Positions 10,350 to 61,725 of a DNA stretch of 64,000 nt are shown one piece after another; position 1 is the first letter of the stretch, and each line of letters starts with the position of its first letter. Origin of the DNA: an uncultured Myxococcales bacterium (GTDB lineage Bacteria > Myxococcota > Myxococcia > Myxococcales > UBA5297); NCBI GenBank assembly GCA_937910285.1, contig CALEOC010000027.1, forward strand, positions 6,725-70,724, read 5' to 3'. Made by a program: the position numbers and the translations under genes. The notes below the pieces were generated by a model. It saw only the letters and a list, made by a program, of their open reading frames with translations. It was not told the origin of the DNA and ran no database searches.

Positions 10350-10965
10350 GGGGGTCCCTTCTCCCCTTGGCGCAGGGAATCCGACGGCAGAGGAGGTCCG
10401 CCGGCGCCACCTGGGGATAAGCATTCGAGTCGATGTCGAGGGCGACGACCCGGTTCATTCGGGTGGCCGAAAGGCGACGCCCCCCTCCAGCCAGCGCCAG
10501 GGAGGCGCCGGGCGGCGAGCGAAAGCTCGCGAGCTCTAGCCCCGAAGAAGGACGCGCCCCGCAAAGAGCGGGCGCCTGGGTGTCGTAAGCGACAGCCCTT
10601 ATAGGTCCCAGAGTTCAGGGGTGTCAAGGGCCGGCGGGATAACGGTGGGTGTTTTGGCTTTTCGCAGTGCGGCCCGTGGGTTTCGACGCCGGGGCTCATT
10701 TCGCCCTCACCCAAGCCGGCCGAGCCGGAACCAAGATGAATCCGGGAGATCGGGGCGGCCGGCAGGCCCCAGTCGTCAGACTTCAGGCTGCAGATTCTTG
10801 CCAATCTGGTCAAACTCTGCCGAGTAGGTCCCCAACCCCTTGGGCGCAGCCAGTCATCCCGAGCTTCGCACCGGTCGTCTCGTGGCTGCGGCCTTCCGAC
10901 CCTCGTGCGCGCCGGCCTTTCCCGTCAGCCCGAGCGAGCTCGAGGTCCGCGTCGACCAGGTGAGA

Positions 10966-13018: not shown

Positions 13019-13022
13019 TCGG
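12904..13022. repeat. 119-bp direct repeat, copy 1 (native 3' end of radA)
   Basis: Matches 16084-16202 except for two adjacent bases (GAGAGCCCG versus GAGAATCCG). Confidence 0.9.
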
Positions 13023-13110
13023 ATTTGCGAGGAGCCTCGGGCGGGCTTGCCGACGCAGAGCGACGGCTTGCCTGTCGCGTCGGTTTCACGCCAGACACGG
13101 TGTCGAAGGG

Positions 13111-13147
13111 GTGACCGGCGGGAGGCAGAGAGCCCTCCGCCGGTCAC
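13111..13147. terminator. strong hairpin between convergent radA and the lipoprotein gene (possible terminator, no U tract)
   Basis: GTGACCGGCGGGAGG-CAGAGAGC-CCTCCGCCGGTCAC gives a stem of about 14 bp with one bulge. No T-rich tail follows. Confidence 0.3.
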
Positions 13148-13268
13148 TCGTATCGTGACCGCGCTTTGCGCAAGACCTGCTGGCAAGACGCCCCAGGCTC
13201 TGGGAGTGCCCACAGAAGGCGCCGCCCCCGCGCCCGCCCATGGCCCCCCCAGCGCAATCGCCAGCGGA

Positions 13269-14297
13269 TCAGTTGCAGGACACCCCTTGGAGCTGGCAGG
13301 TGCCGCTGATGCACGCGGCCGGAGGCATGCAGCTTGGCCCCGAGAGGTCGTTGCACGTTGCGCCATCGGCAGCCGCCGCAACACACGTGCCGCTCGCCTG
13401 GCCTTGGACCATTCGGCAAAACCCGCTGGCCCGGCAGAGCGTGACGCCTCCGGCAATGAAGCCGCAGGGCTGTCCAGCATCGGCGAAGGAGACTGCCTGG
13501 CAGGTGCCTCCGTTGCACAAGAGCCCTGCGGTCGGGTCACAGTCGCTGCTCTGATTACAAGCGCCCCCGGCCCCCGAGGCGGCACTGCACGTACCATTGC
13601 GGCAAGCCAGCGGTGACTTGCACGGCAAGCTGACGCCGCAGGGCGCCCCCGCAGCCCCAGGGCTGACGCACATTCCGTTGGACGCGCACTTGAGCCCGTC
13701 GGCACAGCGCTCGCCATTGGCGCACGAAGAGCCGGCAGGAACCGTCGCCGCGCAAGTCCCGCAGGCCGAGGTCATCCGGCAGGCCCCGCTCTGGCACTGC
13801 TCGTCCGCCCCGCAGACGCTGCCGTTGGGGAGGGTTCCCGCGGGAAAGTCGCAGGCGGCCGGAAGGTTGTCGCTGAAGAGGTCCTGACACGAGAGCCCGG
13901 CAAAGCTCGCGGCGCAGGTGCTCATCTGCTCGGCGAGGAAAGTCACGCCCTTCGCGGAGAAGGTCTCCTCGCAGCCAATCCGATTGCGCGCGCGGCAGGT
14001 GGCTACGTCGCCGTAGTTGATCTGCGCGCTAAATCCCGCGCACCGCTGAAGCAGGTTGCAAACGGCTCCGATGTGGGCATCACAGGCCTGGGCGGGAGAG
14101 ACCGGAGTGACGCAATTCTCGCAGGCACCCCATTCCGAGCCGTCCGAGTTGCAGGTCCGCTCGCCGGTGCCGCCGGTATCGCATTCGCAGGCCTCGGTCG
14201 AACCGGCGGTGCAGACGCTGCCGTCCTTGCTCGAATCCTCACCCGACCCACAACCCCCCAGGAACACCAGCACAAGCACCTTCACCGCTGATTTCAT
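13269..14297 (-). CDS. secreted cysteine-rich repeat lipoprotein
   Basis: It has a lipobox (LVFLGGC). I count 41 Cys in 342 aa, with a reiterated G..C....C..G..C..G.C pattern in the C-terminal half, like myxobacterial/Dickkopf-type Cys-rich repeats. Confidence 0.8.
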   Translation of the reverse strand: MKSAVKVLVLVFLGGCGSGEDSSKDGSVCTAGSTEACECDTGGTGERTCNSDGSEWGACENCVTPVSPAQACDAHIGAVCNLLQRCAGFSAQINYGDVATCRARNRIGCEETFSAKGVTFLAEQMSTCAASFAGLSCQDLFSDNLPAACDFPAGTLPNGSVCGADEQCQSGACRMTSACGTCAATVPAGSSCANGERCADGLKCASNGMCVSPGAAGAPCGVSLPCKSPLACRNGTCSAASGAGGACNQSSDCDPTAGLLCNGGTCQAVSFADAGQPCGFIAGGVTLCRASGFCRMVQGQASGTCVAAAADGATCNDLSGPSCMPPAACISGTCQLQGVSCN

Positions 14298-14758
14298 TGT
14301 GATCCCTCCGTTTGGGAATTAGCAGCACAGAAACAGAAGGCATGCCACGGGCAACAAGCGCCCCGGTACCCTCCGGCCGACGAGTATGGCCGATGGGGCG
14401 GGGCTGCGTCGAGGAGCCAAGCGCTCGCCCTGGCTTACCCAGACTCTCGGCGTCGGCCCCTGCCTGGCCAAGGACCGGGGCTCAGCGGCGGTTCTCCACA
14501 AATCCCGCGACTGCAGCATTGCGGTTAACGCGCGACAGCGCTTCCGTGCTGCGCAGCTTCACCTCGCGAAGGCGGCGCCGCGGCCTGAGCTCGCAAAGAA
14601 GGCGAGCGTGTCTTGCCGCCGGGTGCGGCGCTCGACGGTGCCCGTCATGCCGACCGGGCTCTTGCATCGAGGCAGCCGGGCGCCACCGAACCGGTCCGTT
14701 CGGTATCCCCGGGGCGTCGCTCCGACGCTCGGCACGTCAGACTGCCGAGCCACCCGCG

Positions 14759-15337
14759 CTATTGGAGCCAACTCCACCAGCGCAGGCTGGCGTCCTTGAT
14801 CTTTTCGGACACGTGCTTTCTGGCGAGGCGCTCGAAAGGACGGTATGCGGGCATCCGCTCGTGCACCTCGTAGCTGCCGTGCCATCGCAGGCGGATCACA
14901 TAGCGGCGCTCACCGAGGCGAACGCGCCACCAGTACCTGTGGTTGTTCTTCTTGCGCGTGACCGAGGCGAAGTCGCGCCAGGGAACAAAGGCGCCCCACC
15001 AGTGCCGCTGACCTGGCGTGTCGAGCCGCCGGCGCCTCCCGAAGACCGAGAGCAACATCACGCCCTCGTCGCTGAGGACGAGCCGCTTGGGGATCCAGGC
15101 CGCGAAGACGCCGACCACCGCCACTCCCACGACGGTCCCGAGTGAGATTCGCGCTTTGCCGGTGATCATGAGCGCGAGCGGCAGAAAGGCACCCACGCCG
15201 AATAGAAAGAGCCCTGCCAGCAGCGCGCCGACGTTGGGGGCGACCGAGCCGGCATCGTCTCGCAAGAAGAAGCTCCACAGTGACTGAGCGGAGCTCGGCT
15301 GCTGGGAAAGACGTGTCTTCCTTGACGGACGGGGCAT
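14759..15337 (-). CDS. hypothetical membrane protein
   Basis: I start at the internal ATG (complement 15335-15337, MPRPSRKTRLSQ...). Two clear hydrophobic helices are present (VGALLAGLFLFGVGAFLPLALMI, LGTVVGVAVVGVFAAWI), followed by a basic Trp-rich tail. No family was recognised. Confidence 0.55.
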   Translation of the reverse strand: MPRPSRKTRLSQQPSSAQSLWSFFLRDDAGSVAPNVGALLAGLFLFGVGAFLPLALMITGKARISLGTVVGVAVVGVFAAWIPKRLVLSDEGVMLLSVFGRRRRLDTPGQRHWWGAFVPWRDFASVTRKKNNHRYWWRVRLGERRYVIRLRWHGSYEVHERMPAYRPFERLARKHVSEKIKDASLRWWSWLQ

Positions 15338-15599
15338 CTGGTTCCTGGTTCCTGCCGCGGTTGGCCTGGCGCATTTCTGGGCGTCTGAGTGCAGCAAAAG
15401 AGGGGCAAGTGGCCAGTGCGACAAGGAAAAAGCAGGCGCTCCAGCGACCCTGGCGCCGAGTATGACCGTCTGTGTGGGCCTGCGTCGAGACGCTCGACAC
15501 CAGCCTGTGCGCCCGCCGCGGTGTCGGCGTGCAATTGAGGGCCCCAGGAGATCCTCGCCGCAGGCCAGGCAGCCAACCCGCAGGGAGCTCTCGGCGAGC

Positions 15600-16198
15600 A
15601 GCCGCACGTCAGGGACGCATGCCGCCGGGCGGCGGCGCTTGCCTCTTCCGAACACCTGGCGAAACTCTCCATCCCGGTGGGCGCCTGCGGCAACCTGCCG
15701 CCCGAGCTCGCGGAGAAGGTACTCGCCGACGGCGACGCCGACTTCGTGGCGTTCGGCCGGCCGCTCACCGCCGACCCGGAGATCGGCCGCAAGCTGCGCG
15801 AAGGGCGCCCCGCCGACGTGCGCCCCAGCACCCGCTGCAACCAGCTATGCACCGGCAACGCCTTCTTCGGGAAGGCGCTCGGCTGCGCGGTCAACCCGGA
15901 GGTCGGGTTCGAGGGGACGCGGAAGATCGAACGGGCCGACAAGCCCAAGCAGATCGCGATCATCGGCGCCGGACCGGCCGGCCTCGAGGCCGCTCGGGTG
16001 GCCGCGCTGCGCGGGCACACGGTCGAGGTCTTCGACAAGAACCGCTACCTCGGCGGCGTGCTCTGGCCGGCGGCCACCCCGGTCTTCAAGCGCGCGGTGC
16101 TGCCGGCGGCCAGCGTGCGCAACCTCGAGAATCCGCCGCTCGCGCTGGTGCCGGTCTCGACGATCGGCGAGGCGCTGCAGGCGCTGTTCGAGCGGTAG
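15600..16198 (+). pseudogene. chimeric remnant: middle of a FadH/OYE-type NADH:flavin oxidoreductase fused in frame to a copy of the last 37 codons of radA
   Basis: ...KLSIPVGACGNLPPELAEKVLADGDADFVAFGRPLTADPE... is the end of an OYE TIM barrel. ...QIAIIGAGPAGLEAARVAALRGHTVEVFDKNRYLGG... is a dinucleotide-binding fold. The text then switches abruptly to FKRAVLPAASVRNLENPPLALVPVSTIGEALQALFER*, which is the RadA C-terminus. No N-terminus is present. Confidence 0.8.
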
Positions 16199-16202
16199 TC
16201 GC
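16084..16202. repeat. 119-bp direct repeat, copy 2 (ectopic radA 3' end)
   Basis: See 12904-13022. Confidence 0.9.
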
Positions 16203-16415
16203 TCGAGAGCCTGTCGGCAACTCTACGGCGTATCGCGCGAGGCGGGCGCGCGGTCGTCTCGCCGGCCTGCGTGCGCGGATGAAGCGAGGTTGAGGTCGAC
16301 TTTTCGACGGGGCTTCACGCCGCTCTCGGCCTCGTCGCTCATGTCGACCGCGCGGCCACCCGCGCTGCCCTCCCCGCCCGCTCCGCGTGGCGCGCGAGGG
16401 CTCGTCCACCTCATT

Positions 16416-17447
16416 TCAGCGAGCTCGTGCCCCGGTGCGCTCGGCCCGCGCGAGGATCAGCTCTCCGGCGATGCTGATGGCGATCTCCGCCGGCGTCTCC
16501 GCCTCGATCGCCGTTCCGATGGGGGTGTGAATCCGCGCGATCGCCTCCTGAGGGATGCCCGCCTCGCGGAGCCTGGCGGCGATGGAGGCGCTCTTCGACC
16601 TGCTGCCGATGACCCCGAGGTAGGCGACCTCGGTGCGCAGCACCTGCTGCTGCACCGAAAAGTCGTGGGCGTGCCCCCGAGTCATCACCACCACGTAGTC
16701 GGCGGCGGTCAGGGTGATCGTCTCGGCGATCTTCGCAAAATCGCCCAGCAGCACCGTCTCGGCTCCGGGGAACCGCTCCCGCGAGGCGAACTCCTCGCGG
16801 TCGTCGATGACGACGCAGCGAAACCCGACGTGGGCGAGCACCGGCACCAGCTCCTGGGCGATATGGCCGCCGCCGAAGATCACGACCCGGCCCGCGCGCA
16901 CCAACGGCTCGGAGTAGTAGCGCCTTCCGGCGATCTCCATCTGCACCGCACGGCTCGCCCAGAGCGGGGCGAGCGGCTCCGCGGGCACGGCCAGGCCCGA
17001 GAGGCCTTGGCTGCGGCTGAAGAGGCCCATGTTCCAGGCCGAGGCGTCGGTCAGGTCGGTGACCAGCCAGGCGTCCTCGTCGCGACTGAACCCGGCCACG
17101 ATGGCCTCGACCCGCGCGAGGTTGGCGCTCTCGTTTGCAGCGACGAACTGGAAGTGGACCTTCACCTCGCCGCCGCAGATCATCCCCAGGTCTTCCACCT
17201 CGTTGCGGGCGAGGACGAAACCCTCCAGGCGAGAGCGCTTTTCATCGAGGATCTTCGCGGCGAGCCCCTCGGCGCGGTGCTCGACGGCGCCGCCTCCGAT
17301 GGTTCCGCGCAGCCTTCCCTGCCGGGTCACCAGCATCCTCGCCCCCGCCTCCCGGGGAATCGAGCCGGTGCTGGCGACGACGGTGACGAGCACCGCGTCT
17401 TCGCCGCTCTCCAAGCGCTCCTTCAGCAGGCCAAACATCGCTCTCAT
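16416..17447 (-). CDS. XdhC/CoxI-family molybdoenzyme maturation protein
   Basis: I start at MRAMFGLLKERL (ATG complement 17445-17447). The N-terminal XdhC domain reads VLVTVVASTGSIPREAGARMLV...GTIGGG. The C-terminal Rossmann part reads RVVIFGGGHIAQELVPVL...VVMTRGHAHD. Confidence 0.8.
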   Translation of the reverse strand: MRAMFGLLKERLESGEDAVLVTVVASTGSIPREAGARMLVTRQGRLRGTIGGGAVEHRAEGLAAKILDEKRSRLEGFVLARNEVEDLGMICGGEVKVHFQFVAANESANLARVEAIVAGFSRDEDAWLVTDLTDASAWNMGLFSRSQGLSGLAVPAEPLAPLWASRAVQMEIAGRRYYSEPLVRAGRVVIFGGGHIAQELVPVLAHVGFRCVVIDDREEFASRERFPGAETVLLGDFAKIAETITLTAADYVVVMTRGHAHDFSVQQQVLRTEVAYLGVIGSRSKSASIAARLREAGIPQEAIARIHTPIGTAIEAETPAEIAISIAGELILARAERTGARAR

Positions 17448-17812
17448 CGGACGAGACTCCCGGGTCGTTGGGGGAAAGGGAGGATAGCTCGAACGCGCGC
17501 GGGTCGAGTTGCTCAGAGGATGGAAGGTCGGTGCGGGACCGCCGTCGGTCTTCACCTTGGCTATCAGGTGTCGCTCGCTCTCAAAGGCTCGTCGAAGGCT
17601 TTGGGATAGGCGGACTGGGCCAGGGTTGCTCGGACGGGACTCAAAGCGACTCTGCCGCTCCCTCCTTGCCCCCAAGCCTTGCGGCTCCTGTCCGCAATAA
17701 GGGCTTCGCCGCCTTGCAACACCGGCCAAGCCAAAGCGCGCGCCCTGGTGACTGCCGCCGGCTCAATGGACCTATTTTCGCCTGACGCAGACCCGAACCA
17801 AGGAGAGATGCC

Positions 17813-18440
17813 ATGAGCGGCTTCGAGCACCTGTTGGCCCCGGGGAAGATCGGCAGCCTCGAGCTCCCCAACCGCATCCTGCTGAGCCCGATGGGAACCG
17901 AGATGTGCACCCCCGACGGCAAGTCGACCCCGGCTCCCCCCTCTGCTGCCCGACAGCGTCGCCGGGCTCGACTCGAAGCAGGTGGTCGACGTGCTCGACT
18001 TCCACCTCGGGGCGCCGCTCGGCAAGCGGGTGGTGGTCGCCGGCGGCGGTCTCTCGGGTTGCGACGCCGCGCTCGAGATAGCGGAGAAGGGCCACGAGGT
18101 CACCCTTGTCGAGATGCTCGACGAGATCGCCCGCGACATGCTCATCACCAACCGGATCACGCTGCTGCGCCAGCTTGCCGAGCGCGGGGTCAAGGTGCTC
18201 ACCGGGCGGACCATCACCGCCATCGAGGAGGGGGCGGTGGTCGCCCAAGGCCCCAACGGCCGCGAGGAGATCGCGGCCGACAGCGTAGTCGCGGCCTTCG
18301 GCGTCCTCCCGGCCACCGAGCTGACCGAGGCCCTGAGGCAGCGCTACGGCGCGAGGGTCCACCCGGTCGGCGACTGCGTCAAACCGCGCAAGGTGGGCGA
18401 CGCGGTCAACGACGCCTACGCGCTCGCGCTGACCTTGTGA
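17813..18440 (+). pseudogene. internally deleted FadH/OYE-type flavoenzyme gene (N-terminal ~40 codons joined out of frame to C-terminal ~165 codons)
   Basis: MSGFEHLLAPGKIGSLELPNRILLSPMGTEM... is a typical OYE N-terminus. About 120 nt later a different frame reads ...LLPDSVAGLDSKQVVDVLDFHLGAPLGKRVVVAGGGLSGCDAALEIAEKGHEVTLVE...VHPVGDC..., which is the C-terminal NAD(P)-binding part of 2,4-dienoyl-CoA-reductase-like enzymes. The barrel and FAD domain are missing here. Confidence 0.75.
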
Positions 18441-18936
18441 GGTCGTGCGGCGGGCCGGCCGGGTCGGGCGACCGTTCGCTCGCCCGGCCGGCTTGGCCGA
18501 CACTGGTCGAATCCAAGAGGTACGAGCCGAAGAAGGTACCGCCGTCGTCTCGACGACTCGAGCGCTCCTCGCTCGAGGTTGGCCCGTCCGCGGGGATTTC
18601 GGGCATCCCGACCTCCGCGAGGCATCGCTCGATCTGCCGGAGGAGGGGACAGTCTTCTGCCTTCACGGCTCGGATGTGCAGCGGTGCAGTCTTGCCTCAC
18701 CCGAGTTGGCCTCCGCGGCGATCCCGCCGGAGGCGATCCGTCGGCGCGATCGCGGCAATCGCGAGGGCTGCAGCCGCCAGCGGCCGCACTTCGCGAACCC
18801 GGCCGCCGGCTATCGAGCTGTCACCAACGCCCACGGGGCCCACGCGGCGAGGCTCTCCGCCGGCCCGGCGGTCACATATCGACCGCACCTGCGATTCGCC
18901 CGAGCCTGAGCCGGTGGCGCACAGGGACGGCCCGGC

Positions 18937-19334
18937 CACTCGTCGAGTGCGACAAGCGCGGTGCAGGCGCCCGCCTTCGACTCATCGAGTGGTAGGAAGG
19001 CGTGGTAGGCGCCGGTTCTCGACTCATCGAGTGGCAGGAAGGGGTGGTAGACGCCGGTTTTCGACTCATCGAGTGCTAAGAAGGCCTGGCAGGTGCCGGT
19101 CTTCGACTCATCGAGTGCCGAAAACGTCGCGCAGCCGAAGGTTTTTGACTCATCGAGTGGCGAAGAGGCTGCGGAGGCAGCGAATTTTGACTCATCGAGT
19201 GGCGAAGAGGCGGGTTGGGCAGCGAATTTCGACTCATCGAGTGGCGAAGAGGCGGGTTGGGCACCGACCCTTCACTCGATGAGTCGTGTCGGAGCTCGGA
19301 GCTCCGACACGCCTCGACGAAGCTGGAGCTTCGT
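18937..19334. repeat. 42-bp tandem array (8 units) plus inverted core copy and two palindromes
   Basis: The core GACTCATCGAGTG occurs at 18979, 19021, 19063, 19105, 19147, 19189 and 19231, with a degenerate copy at 18937. A reverse-complement core lies at 19273-19285. Palindromes lie at 19286-19310 and 19317-19334. Confidence 0.9.
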
Positions 19335-19516
19335 TCGTCAGACGAAGCCGGAGCTTCATCCTCCATCCCTTCGCGTACCTGGCTCCAAGTTCGCCCACGG
19401 CAGCCTCTCGCGCGATAGGCCGGAGGACCTGCTGTAACGACACCATCCTCGCGGTGGACGCAAACACGAGCATCCGGCAACGATTTGACGGTGAACAGGA
19501 CTTCGAGGGTTTGCAG

Positions 19517-19723
19517 CTAACGCTGCCAGGGGTTGACAACCTCCAGCCCCGGATAGTCGAAATCCCCGACGTTGCGAGTCGCCAGGCGCAGCTCGTGATG
19601 CACGGCCGTGGCAGCGAGCAGGCTGTCGATGCTTGGCATCGGGCGCCCTGCCTTTGCGAGCAGCCGGCCCCAGCAGTCGGCGACTGCCCTGTCCACCGGC
19701 AGCCGCTCGGCCTCTTGCTTCAT
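19517..19723 (-). pseudogene. 5'-truncated PIN-domain (VapC-like) toxin gene remnant
   Basis: The C-terminal half of a PIN domain is clear (LPVDRAVADCWGRLLAKAGRPMPSIDSLLAATAVHHELRLATRNVGDFDYPGLEVVNPW). No N-terminal acidic (DTN-type) segment is present and no antitoxin ORF lies upstream. Confidence 0.55.
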
Positions 19724-19838
19724 GAGCGGTCGGTTGCCCGCCAACCCCGATGCGCGCCCGCCCCAGCGGTGTGGAAAGCCGCGCCCTCGCGGCGCCGCTC
19801 GTGCAAGACTGGACAGTCGAATCCTCTCGGAGGCTGGC

Positions 19839-35267: not shown

Positions 35268-37340
35268 ATGAAGACGCTCGGTCTCACCTTCGCGCTCTCG
35301 CTACTCGTCGCTGGCTGCACCGGTCCCGAGGGTCCGCTCGGTCCGGCCGGTCTTGTCGGTCCGCAGGGCCCCGAGGGACAGGCCGGGGAGGAGGGCGAGC
35401 CCGGCGACAAGGGCGAAAAGGGCGACCCGGGCGAGCCCGGCCCCATTACCGACCCGCCGGCGGTCGAAGGGCTCTCGCCGACCTGGGGCTCGGGCCGCAC
35501 GCGAGTGACCATCCGCGGCGCGCGCTTCTCGGCGACACCGCTGGACAACTTCGTCACCTTCGACGGTTACCGCGCCACGGTGCTCGAGGCGAGCGCGGAC
35601 GAGCTGCTCGTCGAGCCGTCGGTCAGCGTCGCCGCCGCGCGGCCTGTGGCGGTGTCGGTCGAGGTGGCCAACCAGGTATCGAACGCCGCGCTGTTCGACC
35701 TGGTGCCGACCGGGACCGCGAGAGCGCTCGACGCGGCCCTGCCGGCCGGCCCGGGCGATGTCGTCGTCGCCAACGGCGAGGTGTTCGTGGCCGGCACCGA
35801 TTACCTCAGTCCGAACGCCGGGTTGTACCGCGTGGAGGCGGGCGGCCGGACGACCCGCGTCGTTGCCGCCGAGCGGGTCGAGCTCCCCGTGGCCGGCATC
35901 GACGCCCCGCTCTTCGACGCGCCGCTGTCGCTCGCCACCGACGGCAACGACGTCTGGTACACCACAGCCTCCGGGCTCGTGCGCCGCTATCGCGCCGAGA
36001 ACAGCTCGGTCTACGACGTCCTCTCCATCCCCCCGCCCGACACCGTCTTCCCCGCGCGCACCGGCATCGCCCGCGACCAGGCCGGCAACCTCTTCATCGC
36101 CGATCGCACCCTCGAAGGCGGCGGCGGGCTGCTCTGGCTCGACTCGGAGGGCGCGCTCGAGACCGTGCCGCTGCCCGGCGCCCTCGCCGTGGCCGCCGAC
36201 GGCGGCGACCTCTTCGTGCTCACCTCGGCCGGCGCGGTCGCGCGGGTCAGCTTTGCGACCGGAAGCGCTGTCGTCACCCCGGACTTCGCGACCGGCGCCA
36301 CGGGGGCGTCCGACCTCGCGGTGATGGACGGCAAGCTGCTCGTCTCGCTGCCCGACGCGACGCTCGCCGCCATCAGCAAGAGCGCGGGCGGCGCCTTCGC
36401 TCCCTACGGCGACCCGGCGGGCTACCTCTACCCGGCCCGCGGTCTGTTCGCCGACGGCGACGCGCTGCTGCTCGCCCAGGCCGACGGCGGCGTGGTCCGG
36501 CGGCTGGCCGCGTCGGCCTCGCCGACCATCGTCGCCGCGGGGCTGCGCCCAGCGCTGGCCACCAGTCGCATCGACGAGACCTTCTACTTCGCGACCGTGG
36601 GCCCCGCCGGCCTGGGCGTCGCGACCCACCTCGACGACTCGGCGCTGGTCGAGGTGCGCGCCGACGGCAGCAGCCAGGTCGTGCTCCAGACCCAGCTCAT
36701 CACCGGCGTCGGCGCCGCACCCGGGGGCGGGCTCGCCTTGGCGCACTGCCGCGAGTCGCTGATCGAATCGTTCGATCCGGCGACGCGGCATCGGGTTCCG
36801 CTGCTGACGGCGGCCGATGGGCTCGCCTGCCCCGCCGGGCTCTTCTTCAGCGCCGACGGGCACCTCGTCTATTCGAACGTCGAGCCCGGGCAGGCCGCCC
36901 CGCGCACGCGGGTCGGGAGGAAGACCCCCTCGGGCAACGACCTGAATTACGTGACCGGCCTTGGGCCCGGCTCGGTCTTCGTGGGCAGCTCGAACCGCCG
37001 GCTGCTCAGCATGGCGCGCGCGCAGCTCGAGCCGGTGGCGCTCCACACCGCCGACGCGACCTACGGAGGCGCGGCGAGCCTCTTCGCACCGGCGACGGCC
37101 ATCGGGATGGCGACCGCGCTGGGCGTCACCTCGAACGAGACCGTCCTCATCACCCGTTTGGGGGGAAGCATCGCCCGCATCGAGACCGCGCTGGGCCAGG
37201 CGATTCCTTGGGGGCGCACGGTGGTCGAGGAGCTGGGCTACACGCGGACATCGGGCCCGTCGTCGATTGGCTTCCGCGAGGACGGCACGTTGGTGGCGGT
37301 CGATGAGCGGCAGGGGGTGGTCGTCGAGGTGGCGCCGTAG
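35268..37340 (+). CDS. lipoprotein with collagen-like G-X-Y tract, IPT/TIG-like domain and beta-propeller-like repeats
   Basis: It has a lipobox (LLVAGC) followed at once by 13-14 uninterrupted G-X-Y triplets (GPEGPLGPAGLVGPQGPEGQAGEEGEPGDKGEKGDPGEPGP, about 35322-35447). An IPT-like segment follows (VEGLSPTWGSGRTRVTIRGARF...VTFDG). Repeated strand-like segments come after it (GNLFIADR, GDLFVLTS...). Confidence 0.75.
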   Translation: MKTLGLTFALSLLVAGCTGPEGPLGPAGLVGPQGPEGQAGEEGEPGDKGEKGDPGEPGPITDPPAVEGLSPTWGSGRTRVTIRGARFSATPLDNFVTFDGYRATVLEASADELLVEPSVSVAAARPVAVSVEVANQVSNAALFDLVPTGTARALDAALPAGPGDVVVANGEVFVAGTDYLSPNAGLYRVEAGGRTTRVVAAERVELPVAGIDAPLFDAPLSLATDGNDVWYTTASGLVRRYRAENSSVYDVLSIPPPDTVFPARTGIARDQAGNLFIADRTLEGGGGLLWLDSEGALETVPLPGALAVAADGGDLFVLTSAGAVARVSFATGSAVVTPDFATGATGASDLAVMDGKLLVSLPDATLAAISKSAGGAFAPYGDPAGYLYPARGLFADGDALLLAQADGGVVRRLAASASPTIVAAGLRPALATSRIDETFYFATVGPAGLGVATHLDDSALVEVRADGSSQVVLQTQLITGVGAAPGGGLALAHCRESLIESFDPATRHRVPLLTAADGLACPAGLFFSADGHLVYSNVEPGQAAPRTRVGRKTPSGNDLNYVTGLGPGSVFVGSSNRRLLSMARAQLEPVALHTADATYGGAASLFAPATAIGMATALGVTSNETVLITRLGGSIARIETALGQAIPWGRTVVEELGYTRTSGPSSIGFREDGTLVAVDERQGVVVEVAP

Positions 37341-37400
37341 GAGGCCGACGACGCCCCACATCCGGCCTGCCTCCGACTGACCTTCGCCGCCTACGGTCCT

Positions 37401-37900
37401 CGTGCTCCCGAGCGCTGAAATCGTCGCCGACTCACGATCCGCGGTGCTCCCGAGCGCCGAAATCGTCGCCGACTCACGGTCCGTGGTGCTCCCGAGCAGT
37501 CGAGATCGTCGCCGCCGACGATCTCTGGTTCGACCGGAGCTCGAGGATCGTCGCGGCCGACGATCTCTGGTTCGACCGGAGCTCGAGCGAACGTGGCTGC
37601 CGACGCTTTTGGTTCCACCGGAGCTCGGGGATCGTCGCCGCCGACGTTTTCGGTTCGACCGGAGTTCAGCCATCGTCGCGGCCGACGATCTCTGGTTCGA
37701 CCGGAGCTCGAGGATCGTCGCCGCTGACGTTTTCGGTTCAACCGGAGCTCGGCGATCGTCGCGGCCGACGATCTCTGGTTCAACCGGAGCTCGGGGATCG
37801 TCGCGGCCGACGTTTTCGGTTCAACCGGAGCTCGGCGATCGTCGCGGCCGACGTTTTCAGTTCGACCGGAGCTTGATGAGTCGCTGACGTTCGGACTCGC
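37401..37900. repeat. 41/42-bp tandem array, about 12 units in three subtypes
   Basis: Units start at 37401, 37443, 37485, 37527, 37569, 37611, 37652, 37694, 37735, 37777, 37818 and 37859. The core is GGTTCGACCGGAGCTCG. Several units carry the dyad GATCGTCG-N4-CGACGATC (for example 37504-37523 and 37546-37565). Confidence 0.9.
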
Positions 37901-38246
37901 GCTCCGTGGACCAGGCACTTTCGCCGGATGGCGACATCGATCCTCTTGCCAGTGACCACGCGCGGCCCCTGTGGAAGCCCCCTCCCCTCGGGCGCGCTGA
38001 CCAGGGCGAGACGAGCAGAAGCCGCGTTCGCGCGCCCGAGGGAGAGGGGGTTTGGGGGTAGGGGTCGGCCGGACCTCGCGCCAGAACGATGCCCGCCTGC
38101 CGCTACGAGTCGCCGCTCGAGCACCAAGCCAGAAGCTCCAGCTTCGTCGTCGTGCGGTGGCGTTTCACGATCGGGAACGGTCGGAACCTCGGCGGGTTCA
38201 CTGACCTGACACCGGATGGACTTTCCCGCCCCGATGACGGGGAGGC

Positions 38247-38684
38247 CTACCCGCGCCTCACGCTCACCGCGCACCTGTCCGACTCGAACAGCGTCTTCTC
38301 GAGGTCGAACTTCGCCTCCGGGTCCATCCCACGGATCATCCCCTCGATGGGATCGAGGCAGTAGATGCGGCACGGGCTCGCCGAGCCCATCCGCTTCGCG
38401 AGCGCGCAGAGCATGCAGCGGCTCGCCTGGGCACCGAACCCGCCCTGCTCCTGGGTGATCTTCCAGTCGGCGCACCCGAACAGCTCGGCGGTCCGGGTGA
38501 ACGCCTCCTCGGGCCGCGTCAGCCCCATCTGGGCCGCGCGCATCTTCCCGCCCGCGAGCTGCTCCTGGCGCTTGGCCTCGGTCACCTGCTCGAGGACGCC
38601 CGCCCGCGCGTAGTGGCGGCCGGCGTCGGCGAGCGCGCCGGCGTAGACTTTGCGAAGGATATCGAGGGTTTCGGCTGGCTGCAT
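38247..38684 (-). CDS. cysteine-motif protein, ATC-hydrolase-like (PF14196-like) family
   Basis: I start at MQPAETLD (ATG complement 38682-38684). The C-terminal pattern RCMLCALAKRMG...PCRIYCLDPIEGMIRGMDPE...SDRCAVSV resembles L-2-amino-thiazoline-4-carboxylate-hydrolase-family proteins. This is assigned from memory of the family pattern only. Confidence 0.5.
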   Translation of the reverse strand: MQPAETLDILRKVYAGALADAGRHYARAGVLEQVTEAKRQEQLAGGKMRAAQMGLTRPEEAFTRTAELFGCADWKITQEQGGFGAQASRCMLCALAKRMGSASPCRIYCLDPIEGMIRGMDPEAKFDLEKTLFESDRCAVSVRRG

Positions 38685-38750: not shown

Positions 38751-39464
38751 TCAGGTTGTGACAGCAGCCGCGTCGCTCTCGAGCAGCTCGAGCCAGAAGT
38801 TCTTGGGCGGCAGCACCTGCTCCGACTCCCGGAACAGGCGGGCGAGGCCGGTCGAACGGCGCAGCTTCGCGTACTCTTTGGGCAAATCCACGTCGTCGAC
38901 GTGCCGGCGCATGCGACAGCGGCAGGTTCCCGCCGGGTTGTGCAGCACGCACTGGTCGGCGAGAAACCCGTTGAGCTTGCGGCGCGAGCGGCTGACGTGT
39001 TGGCGCGCCGTCGCCTCCTCGCACTCGAGAACCCGGGCAATCTCCGCGTAGTCGACCTCCGCCATCTCGCGCAGGATGAAGGCGAGCCGCGGCTCGGGCT
39101 CCAGGCACTGGAGCATGCCCGCGAGGCACTTGTCGCACATCGACTTGACCCACAGCCGCTTGTCGAGATCGGCCTGCTCGGGCAGCGGCAGGTCGGGGCC
39201 GCTGAAGTAGGCGCGCAAGAACTCTATCGAATAGCGCCGCTCGTCCCGGGTGTGGCGACGCGCGACGCGCCAGGTGAGCTGGTAGATCCAGGTGGACAGC
39301 TCGGAGCGCCCCTCGAACCGCGGCAGGCTCTCGAGCAGCTCGAGCCAGACCTGCTGGGCCGCTTCGCGGGCGCGCTCCTCGTTGCGCGTCATCCGCCAGC
39401 AGATGGAAGAGACGAGGCGGCCGTATTTGTCGACGAGGTCGCGGTGGTCGGTGGGGGCGGGCAT
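38751..39464 (-). CDS. ECF-type RNA polymerase sigma factor with Cys-rich linker and about 70-aa C-terminal extension
   Basis: I start at MPAPTDHRD (ATG complement 39462-39464). Sigma-2 reads REAAQQVWLELLESLPRFEGRSELSTWIYQLTWR. Sigma-4 reads LAFILREMAEVDYAEIARVLECEEATARQHVSRSRRKL. Extra cysteines occur at CDKCLAGMLQC and CVLHNPAGTCRC. Confidence 0.85.
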   Translation of the reverse strand: MPAPTDHRDLVDKYGRLVSSICWRMTRNEERAREAAQQVWLELLESLPRFEGRSELSTWIYQLTWRVARRHTRDERRYSIEFLRAYFSGPDLPLPEQADLDKRLWVKSMCDKCLAGMLQCLEPEPRLAFILREMAEVDYAEIARVLECEEATARQHVSRSRRKLNGFLADQCVLHNPAGTCRCRMRRHVDDVDLPKEYAKLRRSTGLARLFRESEQVLPPKNFWLELLESDAAAVTT

Positions 39465-40064
39465 CGGCACCTCGGGTAAAGGCCGAACCTTGGGCCCGCA
39501 AGGCATGCACCGGTCACCCGGGGTTTGTCGAGGGGCCGAACGAAGTCGAAGCGGCCGCGGCACGACGGTCTGAGCGCGTAGGGCTTGGGCTCAAGCAGAT
39601 GGCCGGGGGTTGTGCTGGCCGCGGAGCGCGTTGGCCCTCACCCTCCTCTCCCAGACGGCGCGCACTCGGACCGTGCTCGACTCGATCATCGAGGGCGCGC
39701 CTGGGAGAGGCGATCGCCCGTGACGGTGCGAGGACTCGTCGCTTGTTCGAGCACAGCTCGCAAGTGCTGCGGCGCCCCGGGCGTCAACGCGTAGTGCAGT
39801 GCGATCAAGCCGGAATGCGGAAGGCCAGCAGACGCGATCGCCCCTCCCAGGCCCGCGCAACCAAGTTCGCGGCGAGCACCCTCGTGTGCGGGCCGCTGGG
39901 AGGGGAGGGGGCGGGCCAACGGTGCCGGCGACGGCCCCCTTACTCGGATCACACCACCTCAAACCCTATCCGAAGCGGGCTTCGTCGACTGTCCCAACCA
40001 GTGAGTGCCGCAACGAAGAGCGCCCCGACTTCGGGGTGACCGGGGCTCGGGCTTCTGGCGGGGC

Positions 40065-44061: not shown

Positions 44062-44187
44062 GCCCTCGGCATCCATCCGAACGCCGTCCCCATCAACCCG
44101 ATAGCCGTCCGGACCAGTCCGAAAGCCGTCCGCATCACCCCGAAGGCCGTCCGCATCGGTCCGAAAGCCGTCCGCATCGGTCCAGCT
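44062..44187. repeat. 21-bp tandem array (5 clear units plus a degenerate one)
   Basis: GCCGTCC recurs at 44083, 44104, 44125, 44146 and 44167, exactly 21 bp apart. The consensus unit is CCGAAAGCCGTCCGCATCGGT. Confidence 0.85.
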
Positions 44188-47212: not shown

Positions 47213-47450
47213 CCCTTCTCGACGACGGCGCCCTCGCGACGGCCGACACAAAGGTCGGCCCTCCGGACCGAAGACGCCGCGAACCCTTCTCGACGACCGC
47301 GCCCGCGACGGCCGACACGAAGGTCGGCCCTCCGGACCGAAGACGCCGCGAACCCTTCTCGACGACCGCGCCCTCGACGGCCGACACGAAGGTCGGCCCT
47401 CCGGACCGAGCCCCCACGAACCCTTCTCGACGACCCCGCCCGCTGATGGC
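47213..47450. repeat. approximately 69-bp tandem array (about 3.5 units), each unit with a perfect hairpin
   Basis: CCCTTCTCGACGAC occurs at 47213, 47284, 47353 and 47421. The hairpin GGCCGAC-AC(A/G)AAG-GTCGGCC occurs at 47241-47260, 47310-47329 and 47379-47398. Confidence 0.85.
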
Positions 47451-47550
47451 CGGCCCTCCGGCAGCCGATGCGGCGCGCCGGGGCGAGCCCCGAACGAGCG
47501 GCAGATTTGCCTGCAAAATTCGCTCGTTGTGCATTCCGGGAAGCGAGCGG

Positions 47551-53517: not shown

Positions 53518-54120
53518 CTAACGTCTCGTCCGCCTCGCTACCGCACGGGCGAAATCGCCTTGGAGGTCCTTGCCCCGGTGGAAGCCGCGGCGCTCGACGA
53601 GCTCGAGGGCCAGTCTGGCCTGTTCGAGCTCCTCCTCGCCGCATCGTTCCAGGAGGGAGCGGATGTCGGCTGCGTCCTGCGGCCGGTCCTCGTCGTGCGC
53701 CAGAACCTTGAGCGCGAGGAGGTGGGCGCGCGTCGCAACCGGCACGACAAGACCGGGCAGCAGCTCGAGCGAATCAGCCTGACTGACAACCTCTTGCTCG
53801 ATTCCTGACGAGGCAAAGAGCAGGTCGAGCACCACCCCTCGGGGCCCGCTGCCCGGACAAGCGAGGCGGATGGTCGCGAGCCGTTGCTGTGCTTCCTGCT
53901 CAACCGAGGCGAGGATCCGATAACCGCGCTGCGCGAGAAGGAATGACAGCCGCTCGGCCTCTCGATCGCTCTCCACGGCGACCGCGACGTCGACGTCGCG
54001 GGTGAAACGCGGCTCGCTGCGAGCCGAAACCGCCAGGCCCCCGACGAGCGTCCAAGGCGCAGCTCCGATCTCATCGAGGTCTTCGGCAATCCCGCGGAGC
54101 GCCCTCTCGGCCCGATTCAC
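53518..54120 (-). CDS. nucleotidyltransferase-fold protein (AbiEii/MNT-like, toxin-antitoxin-type)
   Basis: The NTase signature region is LVGGLAVSARSEPRFTRDVDVAV. Length is about 200 aa. A 4-nt overlap links it to a small upstream ORF. Confidence 0.55.
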   Translation of the reverse strand: MNRAERALRGIAEDLDEIGAAPWTLVGGLAVSARSEPRFTRDVDVAVAVESDREAERLSFLLAQRGYRILASVEQEAQQRLATIRLACPGSGPRGVVLDLLFASSGIEQEVVSQADSLELLPGLVVPVATRAHLLALKVLAHDEDRPQDAADIRSLLERCGEEELEQARLALELVERRGFHRGKDLQGDFARAVARRTRR

Positions 54121-54338
54121 GGCAACCGCCCCGGGCGTCCCGGGGCGTCACCGTACTCGGCGCCCGGGCGCTTCTGCAGCCAGGCGACGAGCAGCTCCTC
54201 GATCTCGGCCTCGCTGGCCTCCGGGTGCTCCCGCCGCAGGTTCTGACGCATCATCGCTTCGCCGAGCTCGTACAGATCCATCGTCAGCTCGAAGCGCTCT
54301 CGAATCTCTTGGCGTTCCTGCTCGATCATCGGCGGCAT
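54117..54338 (-). CDS. small helical protein, putative partner (antitoxin-like) of the nucleotidyltransferase
   Basis: I start at MPPMIEQERQEIRERFE (ATG complement 54336-54338). It is 73 aa long, charged and helical in composition, and translationally coupled to the downstream NTase gene. Confidence 0.45.
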   Translation of the reverse strand: MPPMIEQERQEIRERFELTMDLYELGEAMMRQNLRREHPEASEAEIEELLVAWLQKRPGAEYGDAPGRPGRLP

Positions 54339-54369
54339 TGTAGCCGTACGGCCTGCCTGCAAGCGGCCC

Positions 54370-54530
54370 GGTTCAAGGTCGCAGCCGGCAAGACGACCGA
54401 CGAAGGGATCGGGGCGATCCGGCGGGCCCTCGGCTTCGGCCTCGCAGGCTCGGCCTACGCTCGGGCTGAGCGGGGGGAGCCGGGCGCTCGTCGACTGCCC
54501 TGTCAGTTCAAGGTCACAGCCGGGCGGGGC
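54370..54530. repeat. dispersed REP/MITE-like intergenic element, copy 8, flanked by GTTCAAGGTC(G/A)CAGCCGG direct repeats
   Basis: GGCCTCGCAGGCTCGGCCTACGCTCGGGCTGAGCGGGGGG (54439-54478) lies between GGTTCAAGGTCGCAGCCGGC (54370-54389) and AGTTCAAGGTCACAGCCGGG (54505-54524). The latter motif also occurs at about 45564-45583. Confidence 0.65.
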
Positions 54531-55359
54531 CCGGTGCAAAGCTCGGGGTGAGCGGGTGGCGAGTCGGAGGATGCGCTCTCCGTCCTGCCAGGCCGCGGTC
54601 CACGACGACCACGTCTAGTCTGCCGACCGGCCGGGCTCGGCCGCCGAGCTGCAGATTCACCGATTGGCCACCGATGCGGCTCACCTGGCCCAGCGTCGCC
54701 TGGATAGGCACCGACCAGCGTTCGCCCTCGGGGCTCTCCCAATCGACACGGCTCTCCGAGTCGAGCCCGAGGTTCACGCCGTTGGGGGTCGTGTAGGCGA
54801 CCGTTGGGCGGATGACGCTCCGCTGCACCTCCTTGCGGCCCGCGCTCTCGCTCACCGAGCGTAAGTGCTGGACGAGGAGGCTGCCGGTCCATGCTTCGCC
54901 TTGGAAGACGACGGTGCCCGCGCCTCCCAGGCCGAACGCCCCGGCACCGAGGGCCTGCCGGGTGGCCGAAGGGACGAGCATCGCGGGGCCGACCCCCCAC
55001 CGCAGCCACTTCGTTTCGACGGGCGCCAACAACAGCCGCAAGACCGCGTCGCCCAAGCCGTTGATGCGATCGCTCTGCGGGTCGGGTGGAGGCGCCGATT
55101 GGAGCGGGAGAACGCCCCACACGATGAGCTTCAAGCTGCGCCCGAGGTGCAAGGGGAGCTGCGGCTGGGCGGTGAGGCGAATGTCGCTCACACCGGTGTC
55201 GCCGACGCCGAGGTCGACGTCGTGAAAGAGGGCGACTTGCGCCAGGTCGGAGACAGGATCCTAGAGCTGCTCGGCGAGCCTTCCCTCTTCGGGCTCGGAA
55301 GGTGCGGCGGCGACGGCCGGTAGCGCCACGAGAAGAAGGAAGAGCTGCCGGGACGCCAT
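54514..55359 (-). pseudogene. outer-membrane beta-barrel-like protein gene interrupted by an in-frame TAG
   Basis: A signal peptide ORF (MASRQLFLLLVALPAVAAAPSEPEEG..., ATG complement 55357-55359) is in the same frame as the 54514..55191 ORF. The two are separated by a single TAG (complement of 55258-55260). The downstream text alternates in a beta-strand-like way (SDIRLTAQPQLPLHL..., VAYTTPNGVNLGLDSESRVDWE...). The family assignment is tentative. Confidence 0.4.
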
Positions 55360-61481: not shown

Positions 61482-61725
61482 CCGGATCTCGGAACGTCAT
61501 TTCTGCGCGCGGAAAAGCCGTTCCGAGGACGGGAATGGCCTTTCCGCCCTGCAGATCGGCGTTCCGAGGACGGGAATGGCCTTCCTGACCCGCAGATCGG
61601 CGTTCCGAGGACGGGAATGGCCTTCCTGACCCCGCAGATCGGCGTTCCGAGGACGGGAACGGCCTTCCTGACCCTGCGGATCGGCGTTCCGAGGACCGAG
61701 CTGGCCTGCCTGGCCTGGCGAGAGA
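61482..61725. repeat. 41/42-bp tandem array (5 units) preceded by a partial inverted core
   Basis: The core CGTTCCGAGGACGGGAA(T/C)GGCC occurs at 61519, 61560, 61601, 61643 and 61685. CCGGATCTCGGAACG at 61482-61496 is a partial reverse complement of the core. Confidence 0.85.

Follow-up and report, generated by a model that had tools for sequence, protein, structure and literature searches.

The locus and its genes

The stretch of DNA analysed here (the window, 64 kb in length) comes from an uncultured Myxococcales bacterium of fermentation and sludge metagenomes. It has about 70% G+C and is chromosomal, and Pfam scans identified genes for RadA, PntAB, a GH94 cyclic-glucan synthase, LspA, ABC transporters and an ECF sigma factor. 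No ParA/ParB, replication or Cas genes were found among the window ORFs scanned with Pfam. We focused on an array of short tandem repeats which, as the initial annotation had described, lies between two convergent genes. The features surrounding the array are:

35268-37340, + strand: upstream gene, a 690-aa predicted lipoprotein with the N-terminus MKTLGLTFALSLLVAGC (start codon checked)
37909-38134, no strand assigned: dispersed multi-copy intergenic element of about 225 nt, abutting the array and separate from it (Logan contigs continue into unlike flanks)
38247-38684, - strand: downstream convergent gene, a 145-aa ATC_hydrolase-family protein, P0001 (Pfam, ORF check)
38751-39563, - strand: ECF sigma factor gene, which precedes the ATC_hydrolase-family gene on this strand (Pfam)

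The upstream lipoprotein contains a collagen-like repeat and an IPT/TIG domain (Pfam TIG, Collagen). Its gene has a GC3 of 0.92, and it has orthologues of 690 aa (97% identity) and 650 aa (87% identity). The stop codon of this gene is found 38 nt ahead of the first, partial unit of the array (unit 0), and the 906-bp gap between the convergent genes consists of this 38-nt spacer, the array and the dispersed element.

The dispersed element holds a hairpin with 23-nt arms at 37975-38053, and it showed high depth in metatranscriptome contigs. Copies with differing flanks were seen in L134 (directly after a gene stop), L135, L136, L139 and L128 (three times), and the copy in L135 was tandemly duplicated with a 61-bp period. 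Other repeats were also observed. A REP-like palindrome, GACGAAGCYGGAGCTTC, occurs at 19316-19332 and 19341-19357, downstream of a second tandem array (array A), and in the opposite orientation at 38132-38148, downstream of the array studied here; a related copy is present at L140:6245. Counted strand-wise, the pattern GAAGCYSSAGCTTC matched 10 times where 0.53 were expected; the matches fall on five sites, of which the REP-like palindromes make up three. A further dispersed repeat is the 136-nt stretch at 10704-10839, which is 96% identical to L140:96-231 on another contig of the same metagenome. Elsewhere in the window, a small ORF on the - strand (54117-54614) matches the Rv0078B-related antitoxin family (PF18993, E = 2e-21) and, judged by this match, may be part of a toxin-antitoxin module.

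Anatomy of the array

We observed a genuine tandem array at 37379-37900, with about 12.5 head-to-tail units of 41-42 bp. Tandem Repeats Finder resolved it into 37384-37514 (period 42, 3.1 copies, 87% matches) and 37504-37873 (period 41, 8.9 copies), the latter also being reported with a period of 83 (4.5 copies, score 540). When the sequence was checked unit by unit, the twelve unit starts listed in the initial annotation were all correct, and a partial unit was seen ahead of them. The array contains two types of unit, and the third unit is a hybrid that sets the two types in one register.

37379-37400, + strand: partial unit 0, the tail of a type-1 unit (Tandem Repeats Finder array start 37384; alignment A2)
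37401-37484, + strand: units 1 and 2, type 1, 42 bp each, GGTGCTCCCGAGCGCCGAAATCGTCGCCGACTCACGGTCCGT (homologous to the sister-species units)
37485-37526, + strand: unit 3, hybrid, with a type-1 head and a type-2 tail (unit alignment)
37527-37858, + strand: units 4 to 11, eight type-2 units, GGTTCRACCGGAGCTCG-NN-GATCGTCG-CSGC-CGACG, then ATCTCT (42 bp) or TTTTC (41 bp)
37610-37858, + strand: three 83-bp higher-order repeats, each a 41-bp unit plus a 42/41-bp unit (repeat search, Tandem Repeats Finder)
37859-37900, + strand: unit 12, the degenerate last unit, containing CTTGATGAGTCG (unit alignment)

Allowing up to 3 mismatches, we counted 13 occurrences of the head motif GGTTCRACCGGAGCTCG in the window, where 1.3 would be expected; nine of the 13 were in-register units. 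Some of the finer rules proposed for the units called for small corrections. The first three units had been given one common head; however, unit 1 begins with CGTGC rather than the claimed GGTGC, and the head of unit 3 reads GAGCA. The exact 17-nt head GGTTCGACCGGAGCTCG, with its overlapping GAGCTC and CTCGAG palindromes, had been assigned to all the remaining units and is indeed present in units 4, 5 and 8, but only in these. Successive unit starts in the array were spaced by 42, 42, 41, 42, 41, 42 and 41 bp (repeat search of the array). The described alternation of 42- and 41-bp units is strict in units 6-10 only; unit 11 has the same length as unit 10, 41 bp. Likewise, the rule that a 42-bp unit completes the inverted repeat breaks down at unit 5, which is 42 bp long with a broken dyad.

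The 83-bp higher-order period, on the other hand, is real (repeat search; Tandem Repeats Finder). It is due to three dimers (41+42) that are mutually 90-93% identical (75-77 of the 83 positions), and this similarity suggests that the dimers are the latest amplification step in the array.

Tests for coding capacity, RNA families and mobile elements

We evaluated whether the array could be a coding repeat or a CRISPR-like array. ORFs of 161 aa (+ strand) and 175 aa (- strand) do run across it, and its direct repeats contain dyads. However, the GC3 of these two spanning ORFs is 0.65 and 0.61, in comparison to 0.92-0.95 in the flanking genes, and the mixture of 41- and 42-bp units shifts the frame at every 41-bp unit. 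The array is thus non-coding, as had been argued from the frame earlier, and a coding repeat is ruled out by GC3 and frame. CRISPR is ruled out as well, since the whole 41-42 bp is repeated, leaving no unique spacers, and no cas genes were seen among the window proteins scanned. Together, the two possibilities retain next to no probability.

A search of the whole window with Rfam 15 gave no family over the gathering score, and a permissive threshold likewise yielded none, the best sub-threshold match having an E value of 0.72. BLAST against plasmid and phage collections revealed no similarity to the array. Neither the rest of the 64-kb window nor an additional 43 kb or so of this organism contained the unit. 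A scan of a genome collection with the 17-mer head gave, among the matches listed, single chance matches in unrelated phyla, and a metagenome scan with a 28-nt type-2 pattern gave 0 matches. A search of the literature on myxobacterial intergenic repeats yielded nothing relevant.

The array in the same strain, a sister species and other relatives

Four independent assemblies of the same strain (L122-L125) matched the window at 37200-38400 with 99.75-99.83% identity and no gaps, the array itself being identical in them. Logan contigs of runs from 2014 to 2025 carried the same array pieces, and the array was identical across those samples. As four independent assemblies match without gaps and the Logan contigs contain the same pieces, the array is not an assembly artefact. 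Its constancy over the samples from 2014 to 2025 fits neutrality over short times, and also fits constraint. Some other samples differed in having alternative unit junctions (at 37585 in X2, at 37562 in X10).

In a sister species (locus L128), whose flanking proteins are 87-89% identical to those of the window, we found an array in the same slot. It consists of 5.5 units of 42 bp, all of type 1 (GGTCCTCCCGAGCACCGAAATCGTCACCGACCATCGATCCCC), and contains neither a type-2 unit nor the GATCGTCG-N4-CGACGATC dyad. The type-1 units of the window and of L128 aligned strongly (z = 25.6; also alignment A2). At one and the same locus, therefore, the number and composition of the units differ, with 12.5 mixed units in the window and 5.5 type-1 units in L128. 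Since the sister array occupies the same slot with type 1 only, position and period are inherited, and the dyad would be a recent amplification of local origin. The dyad unit appears to be a derived variant amplified in the lineage of the window, or else it may have been lost in the sister lineage. In a more distant relative, where the TIG protein is 55% identical, synteny was broken and no array was seen.

The initial annotation had pointed to sister genomes, and to any protein or RNA signal at the locus, as the place where its reading of the array could be refuted. The answer was a divided one: the sister species keeps an array in the slot, but a different one, and RNA is tied only to the first one or two units (see below).

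The dyad and the possibility of a protein-binding array

The dyad GATCGTCG-N4-CGACGATC, which had been given considerable weight earlier, was observed to be intact in only 3-4 of the 12 units. It is perfect in units 3, 4 and 9 (10-bp arms in unit 3, 8-bp arms in the other two) and near-perfect in unit 7 (7-bp arms).

37502-37525, + strand: best dyad, in unit 3, GAGATCGTCG-CCGC-CGACGATCTC, 10-bp arms
37546-37565 and 37754-37773, + strand: perfect 8-bp-arm dyads in type-2 units (inverted-repeat search)
37671-37690, + strand: 7-bp-arm dyad in unit 7 (inverted-repeat search)

One reading of these dyads is an array that acts at the level of DNA, as in sopC, iterons or operators, with a dimer sitting on GATCGTCG-N4-CGACGATC and sites spaced by whole helical turns (41.5 bp being close to four turns). 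The array does resemble the sopC site of the F plasmid in form (PMC3177203), with three perfect dyads and one near-perfect one. Its GATC density is also the highest in the window, with 12 sites per 500 bp where the mean is 2.1. However, eight of the 12 units have a broken dyad or none, and the sister species lacks it in its orthologous array. No further copy of the dyad turned up in about 107 kb of the organism, made up of the 64-kb window and roughly 43 kb of additional sequence. The region is chromosomal, no partition, replication or obvious cognate regulator gene is present nearby, and the array lacks plasmid or phage similarity. We therefore regard a protein-binding array as quite improbable, and judge from the sequences compared that the dyad is likely a by-product of unit evolution rather than a conserved binding site.

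Hairpins and terminator-like sites

We also evaluated whether the units act as RNA hairpins. In such a scheme the array would be a selected set of tandem terminators or of elements protecting RNA 3' ends, similar to REP/BIME or the pneumococcal BOX, in which the unit hairpins would either halt the + strand transcript or make it more stable, and would shield the convergent genes from each other. The location between convergent genes speaks for this. A search for stems followed by T runs revealed four weak terminator-like sites in the 41-bp units:

37633-37863, + strand: four sites, each a 5-bp stem CGTCG-N4-CGACG followed by TTTTC(G/A)GTTC
37633-37646, 37716-37729, 37799-37812 and 37840-37853, + strand: the four stems (stem and T-run search)

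Every T4 run of the array lies on the + strand, which is the strand of the upstream gene, and the four hairpin and T-run sites compare with 0.8 expected in 1.8 kb. This comparison rests on loose criteria, however, and the four sites are copies of one unit and not independent. Elsewhere in the window, and in this genome generally, hairpin and T4 sites showed no enrichment (3 against 7.9 expected, and 8 against 6.8 expected), and from this the organism may not rely on intrinsic terminators.

Folding of the individual units gave a similar picture. For 10 of the 12 array units the folding energy was no better than that of shuffled sequences, and the units of array A were likewise unremarkable. The most stable unit hairpin was that of unit 3, at -19.3 kcal/mol (z = -2.6 against shuffles), and in the sister species unit 1 stood out (z = -3.5), so that the gene-proximal units hold the strongest hairpins in both species. 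As the per-unit folding energies were unremarkable except in these two units, selection on the unit hairpins was rejected. The hairpin in the head of the sister units also varies in its 5' arm, without compensation, in five of the six units. The array folded as a whole scored better on the + strand (z = -3.2) than on the - strand (z = -1.1), a score that mainly reflects palindromic repeats pairing with one another.

Transcripts at the locus

RNA was assessed through metatranscriptome contigs, which are assemblies rather than raw reads and stem from a strain 97.5% identical to the window; contigs of this kind break at repeats. In four metatranscriptomes, contigs covered the lipoprotein gene at a depth of 31-58 and ended at 37440-37468, i.e. 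100-125 nt beyond the upstream stop codon and within units 1-2. One of them, L133, ends in ...GGTGCTCCCGAGCACCGAAATCCTGG followed by Illumina adapter, right after the hairpin of unit 2, which is perfect with a 6-7-bp stem. The adapter (AGATCGGAAGAGCACACGTCTG, L133:3913-3934) marks a discrete fragment end, and its presence shows that adapters survive in Logan contigs. This junction indicates that many fragments end at one point just past a small perfect hairpin.

Past units 1-2, the RNA depth was at most 4-19 in the pieces that could be placed and 0 in most bins, a fall of about ten-fold. A 72-nt contig over units 3-5 (37514-37585) had a depth ratio to the gene of 0.08 in RNA, in comparison to 0.55 in the DNA of the same variant strain. 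The contig of the convergent gene stopped at 38208, short of the array. These observations suggest that the first units contain the 3' end of the upstream mRNA and that there is little transcription of the type-2 block; since the contigs are assembled and break at repeats, the drop in depth is suggestive only.

The contig ends within the first units, one of them directly past a perfect hairpin, are in keeping with an array that ends or protects the transcript. They lie upstream of the hairpin and T4 sites, however, at a hairpin that has no T run. The RNA falls before the type-2 units, so those units would seldom be used as terminators. Taking the T runs, the folding and the transcripts together, we consider a selected array of terminators or 3'-end protectors possible but on the whole unlikely, although less so than a protein-binding array.

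The relation to array A and the recurring unit length

The degenerate last unit contains the 9-mer GATGAGTCG, which had been put forward as a link to the inverted terminal core of array A at 19273-19287. The 9-mer is real, but as evidence for a link it is statistically weak, because 0.85 occurrences are expected per window by chance. The string CGGAGCTCG has 5.5 expected occurrences, and circular alignments of the units with those of array A (18938-19287), on both strands, scored no better than shuffles. Homology between the two arrays is thus unsupported.

Array A has features of its own. Its end (19273-19310) carries an inverted copy of its own core (CACTCGATGAGTCG), giving a 14-bp-arm inverted repeat with the last unit, and directly after this end is a perfect 11-bp-arm palindrome, TGTCGGAGCTC-G-GAGCTCCGACA. 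In the sister species the region of array A is rearranged. The distance from radA to the acyltransferase gene there is about 1 kb with one GNAT gene (L141:8939-10000), as against 6.8 kb in the window (13019-19838). The window segment contains an XdhC-family gene, array A and two fragments matching one 703-aa OYE/Pyr_redox gene, which is intact elsewhere in the sister contig (L141:17622-19733). From this comparison the segment 13019-19838 is rearranged, with one gene probably broken.

What several arrays of this lineage have in common is their unit length:

Array A, 18938-19267: period 42
Array under study, 37384-37900: period 41/42
Another array in the window, 61519-61696: period 41/42
Sister-species array, L141:6767-6864: period 41
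Array in the window, 44062-44183: period 21
Sister-species array, L141:6866-6944: period 21

The arrays of period 41-42 or 21 are non-coding, and those other than the array under study have no sequence similarity to it. Control genomes (about 870 kb with about 30 arrays) contained no array with a period of 41-42, and about 62 kb of more distant Myxococcota contained no intergenic arrays. This excess (4 of 10 arrays against 0 of 30) comes from a post hoc comparison of a small sample of 10 arrays. The lineage has in addition arrays of 61, 69, 70 and 89 bp, those of 69-70 bp recurring at 47213-47452 of the window and at L128:1785-1925.

One reading of these data is that the array belongs to a lineage-wide class in which a period of about 41.5 bp (or 21 bp) is set by a shared mechanism or constraint while the sequence is free. 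Four independent and unrelated loci at 41-42 bp, with two more at 21 bp, speak for such a class, as do the control genomes and the more distant relatives. Nevertheless, other periods are present in the same lineage, and unit alignments and folding revealed no motif or structure common to the 41-42-bp arrays. The shared period could also be inherited from a single old satellite, the units of which would by now be too diverged to be recognised as related; within the array under study, type 1 and type 2 are already barely alignable. Given also the post hoc nature and the size of the comparison, membership of such a class is doubtful. It is equally doubtful that, as a broader proposal would have it, the lineage keeps intergenic arrays defined by their length and not their sequence, either because some process selects for length or because a structural DNA-binding protein recognises the spacing, with the studied array as the largest example. 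Should the shared 41-42-bp period hold genome-wide, there would be a real question over what sets the unit length of bacterial minisatellites.

Origin and possible role of the array

The array shows the characteristics of a minisatellite or VNTR, as its units are head-to-tail and non-coding and vary between related genomes at one locus. With moderate confidence we conclude that it is a non-coding minisatellite in the 3' flank of the lipoprotein gene, probably driven by slippage or recombination, which acts at most as a terminator or insulator. What speaks against simple slippage is the recurring 41-42-bp period in unrelated arrays of the lineage, which slippage leaves unexplained.

The array may have arisen when a segment of about 42 bp just past the gene, bearing the small hairpin GGTGCTC-CC-GAGCACC, was tandemly duplicated in an ancestor. 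It would then have grown, shrunk and been homogenised, we infer by replication slippage or unequal recombination. In a variant unit, a few substitutions could have changed ATCGTCGCCGAC...CGATC into the near-perfect palindrome GATCGTCG-N4-CGACGATC, and this type-2 unit would have been amplified in turn, lately as an 83-bp dimer copied three times.

With the upstream mRNA apparently ending within the first one or two units, most of the array would be little-transcribed DNA. A putative role is that of a hairpin at the 3' end of the mRNA, with a row of weak hairpin and T4 sites as back-up stops. Such stops would keep the + strand transcript out of the convergent gene and thereby insulate the gene pair.

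By itself, the array is of little importance. As a VNTR, however, it can serve to mark strains in an uncultured Myxococcales population found repeatedly in fermentation and sludge reactors. The array also offers a clear case in which a perfect palindrome that looks like a binding site would have arisen within a minisatellite and been amplified there, all in the time that two sister species took to diverge.

Comparison with known repeat systems

The closest formal match is the sopC site of the F plasmid, whose 12 direct repeats are 43 bp long and contain one 16-bp inverted repeat apiece (PMC3177203). The array is similar in form, as sopC too has twelve direct repeats of about 43 bp built round an inverted repeat. 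However, sopC adjoins sopAB on a plasmid and has a SopB site in every unit, whereas the array is chromosomal and has no partition genes, and only 3-4 of its 12 units keep an intact dyad, which the sister species lacks. A partition centromere of the sopC type was therefore rejected on gene context, dyad integrity and conservation.

Hairpin-forming repeats at gene 3' ends, often between convergent genes, include the REP/BIME elements of enterobacteria and, in Streptococcus pneumoniae, the BOX elements with tandem 45-bp boxB. The array shares with these its non-coding hairpin units, which lie partly within 3' UTRs, and their varying copy number. However, REP and BOX occur as tens to hundreds of dispersed copies and REPs alternate in orientation, while the array is strictly direct-tandem and at a single locus; since all its units are direct and at one locus, REP/BIME was rejected. 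The dispersed element (37909-38134) and the REP-like palindrome (38132-38145) adjoin the array and are distinct from its units. The array resembles tandem intrinsic terminators in that it repeats, several times over, a GC-rich stem with T residues behind it, in the same strand as the upstream gene; however, its stems are only 5 bp with T4, and the RNA contigs end upstream of the T4 sites.

Mycobacterial MIRUs and other bacterial VNTRs are non-coding tandem intergenic units of 40-100 bp at gene ends that change by slippage or recombination. The array is like them in having intergenic units by gene ends that differ in number and composition between close relatives. It differs in having two unit types and an 83-bp higher-order repeat. 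It differs also in that MIRUs form one family over dozens of loci, whereas its unit occupies one locus in the roughly 107 kb examined. As the other arrays are unrelated in sequence too, a dispersed family of the MIRU type was rejected for these 107 kb. The bacterial intergenic minisatellite is nevertheless a known kind of element, and the array looks like a further case of it and not a new system.
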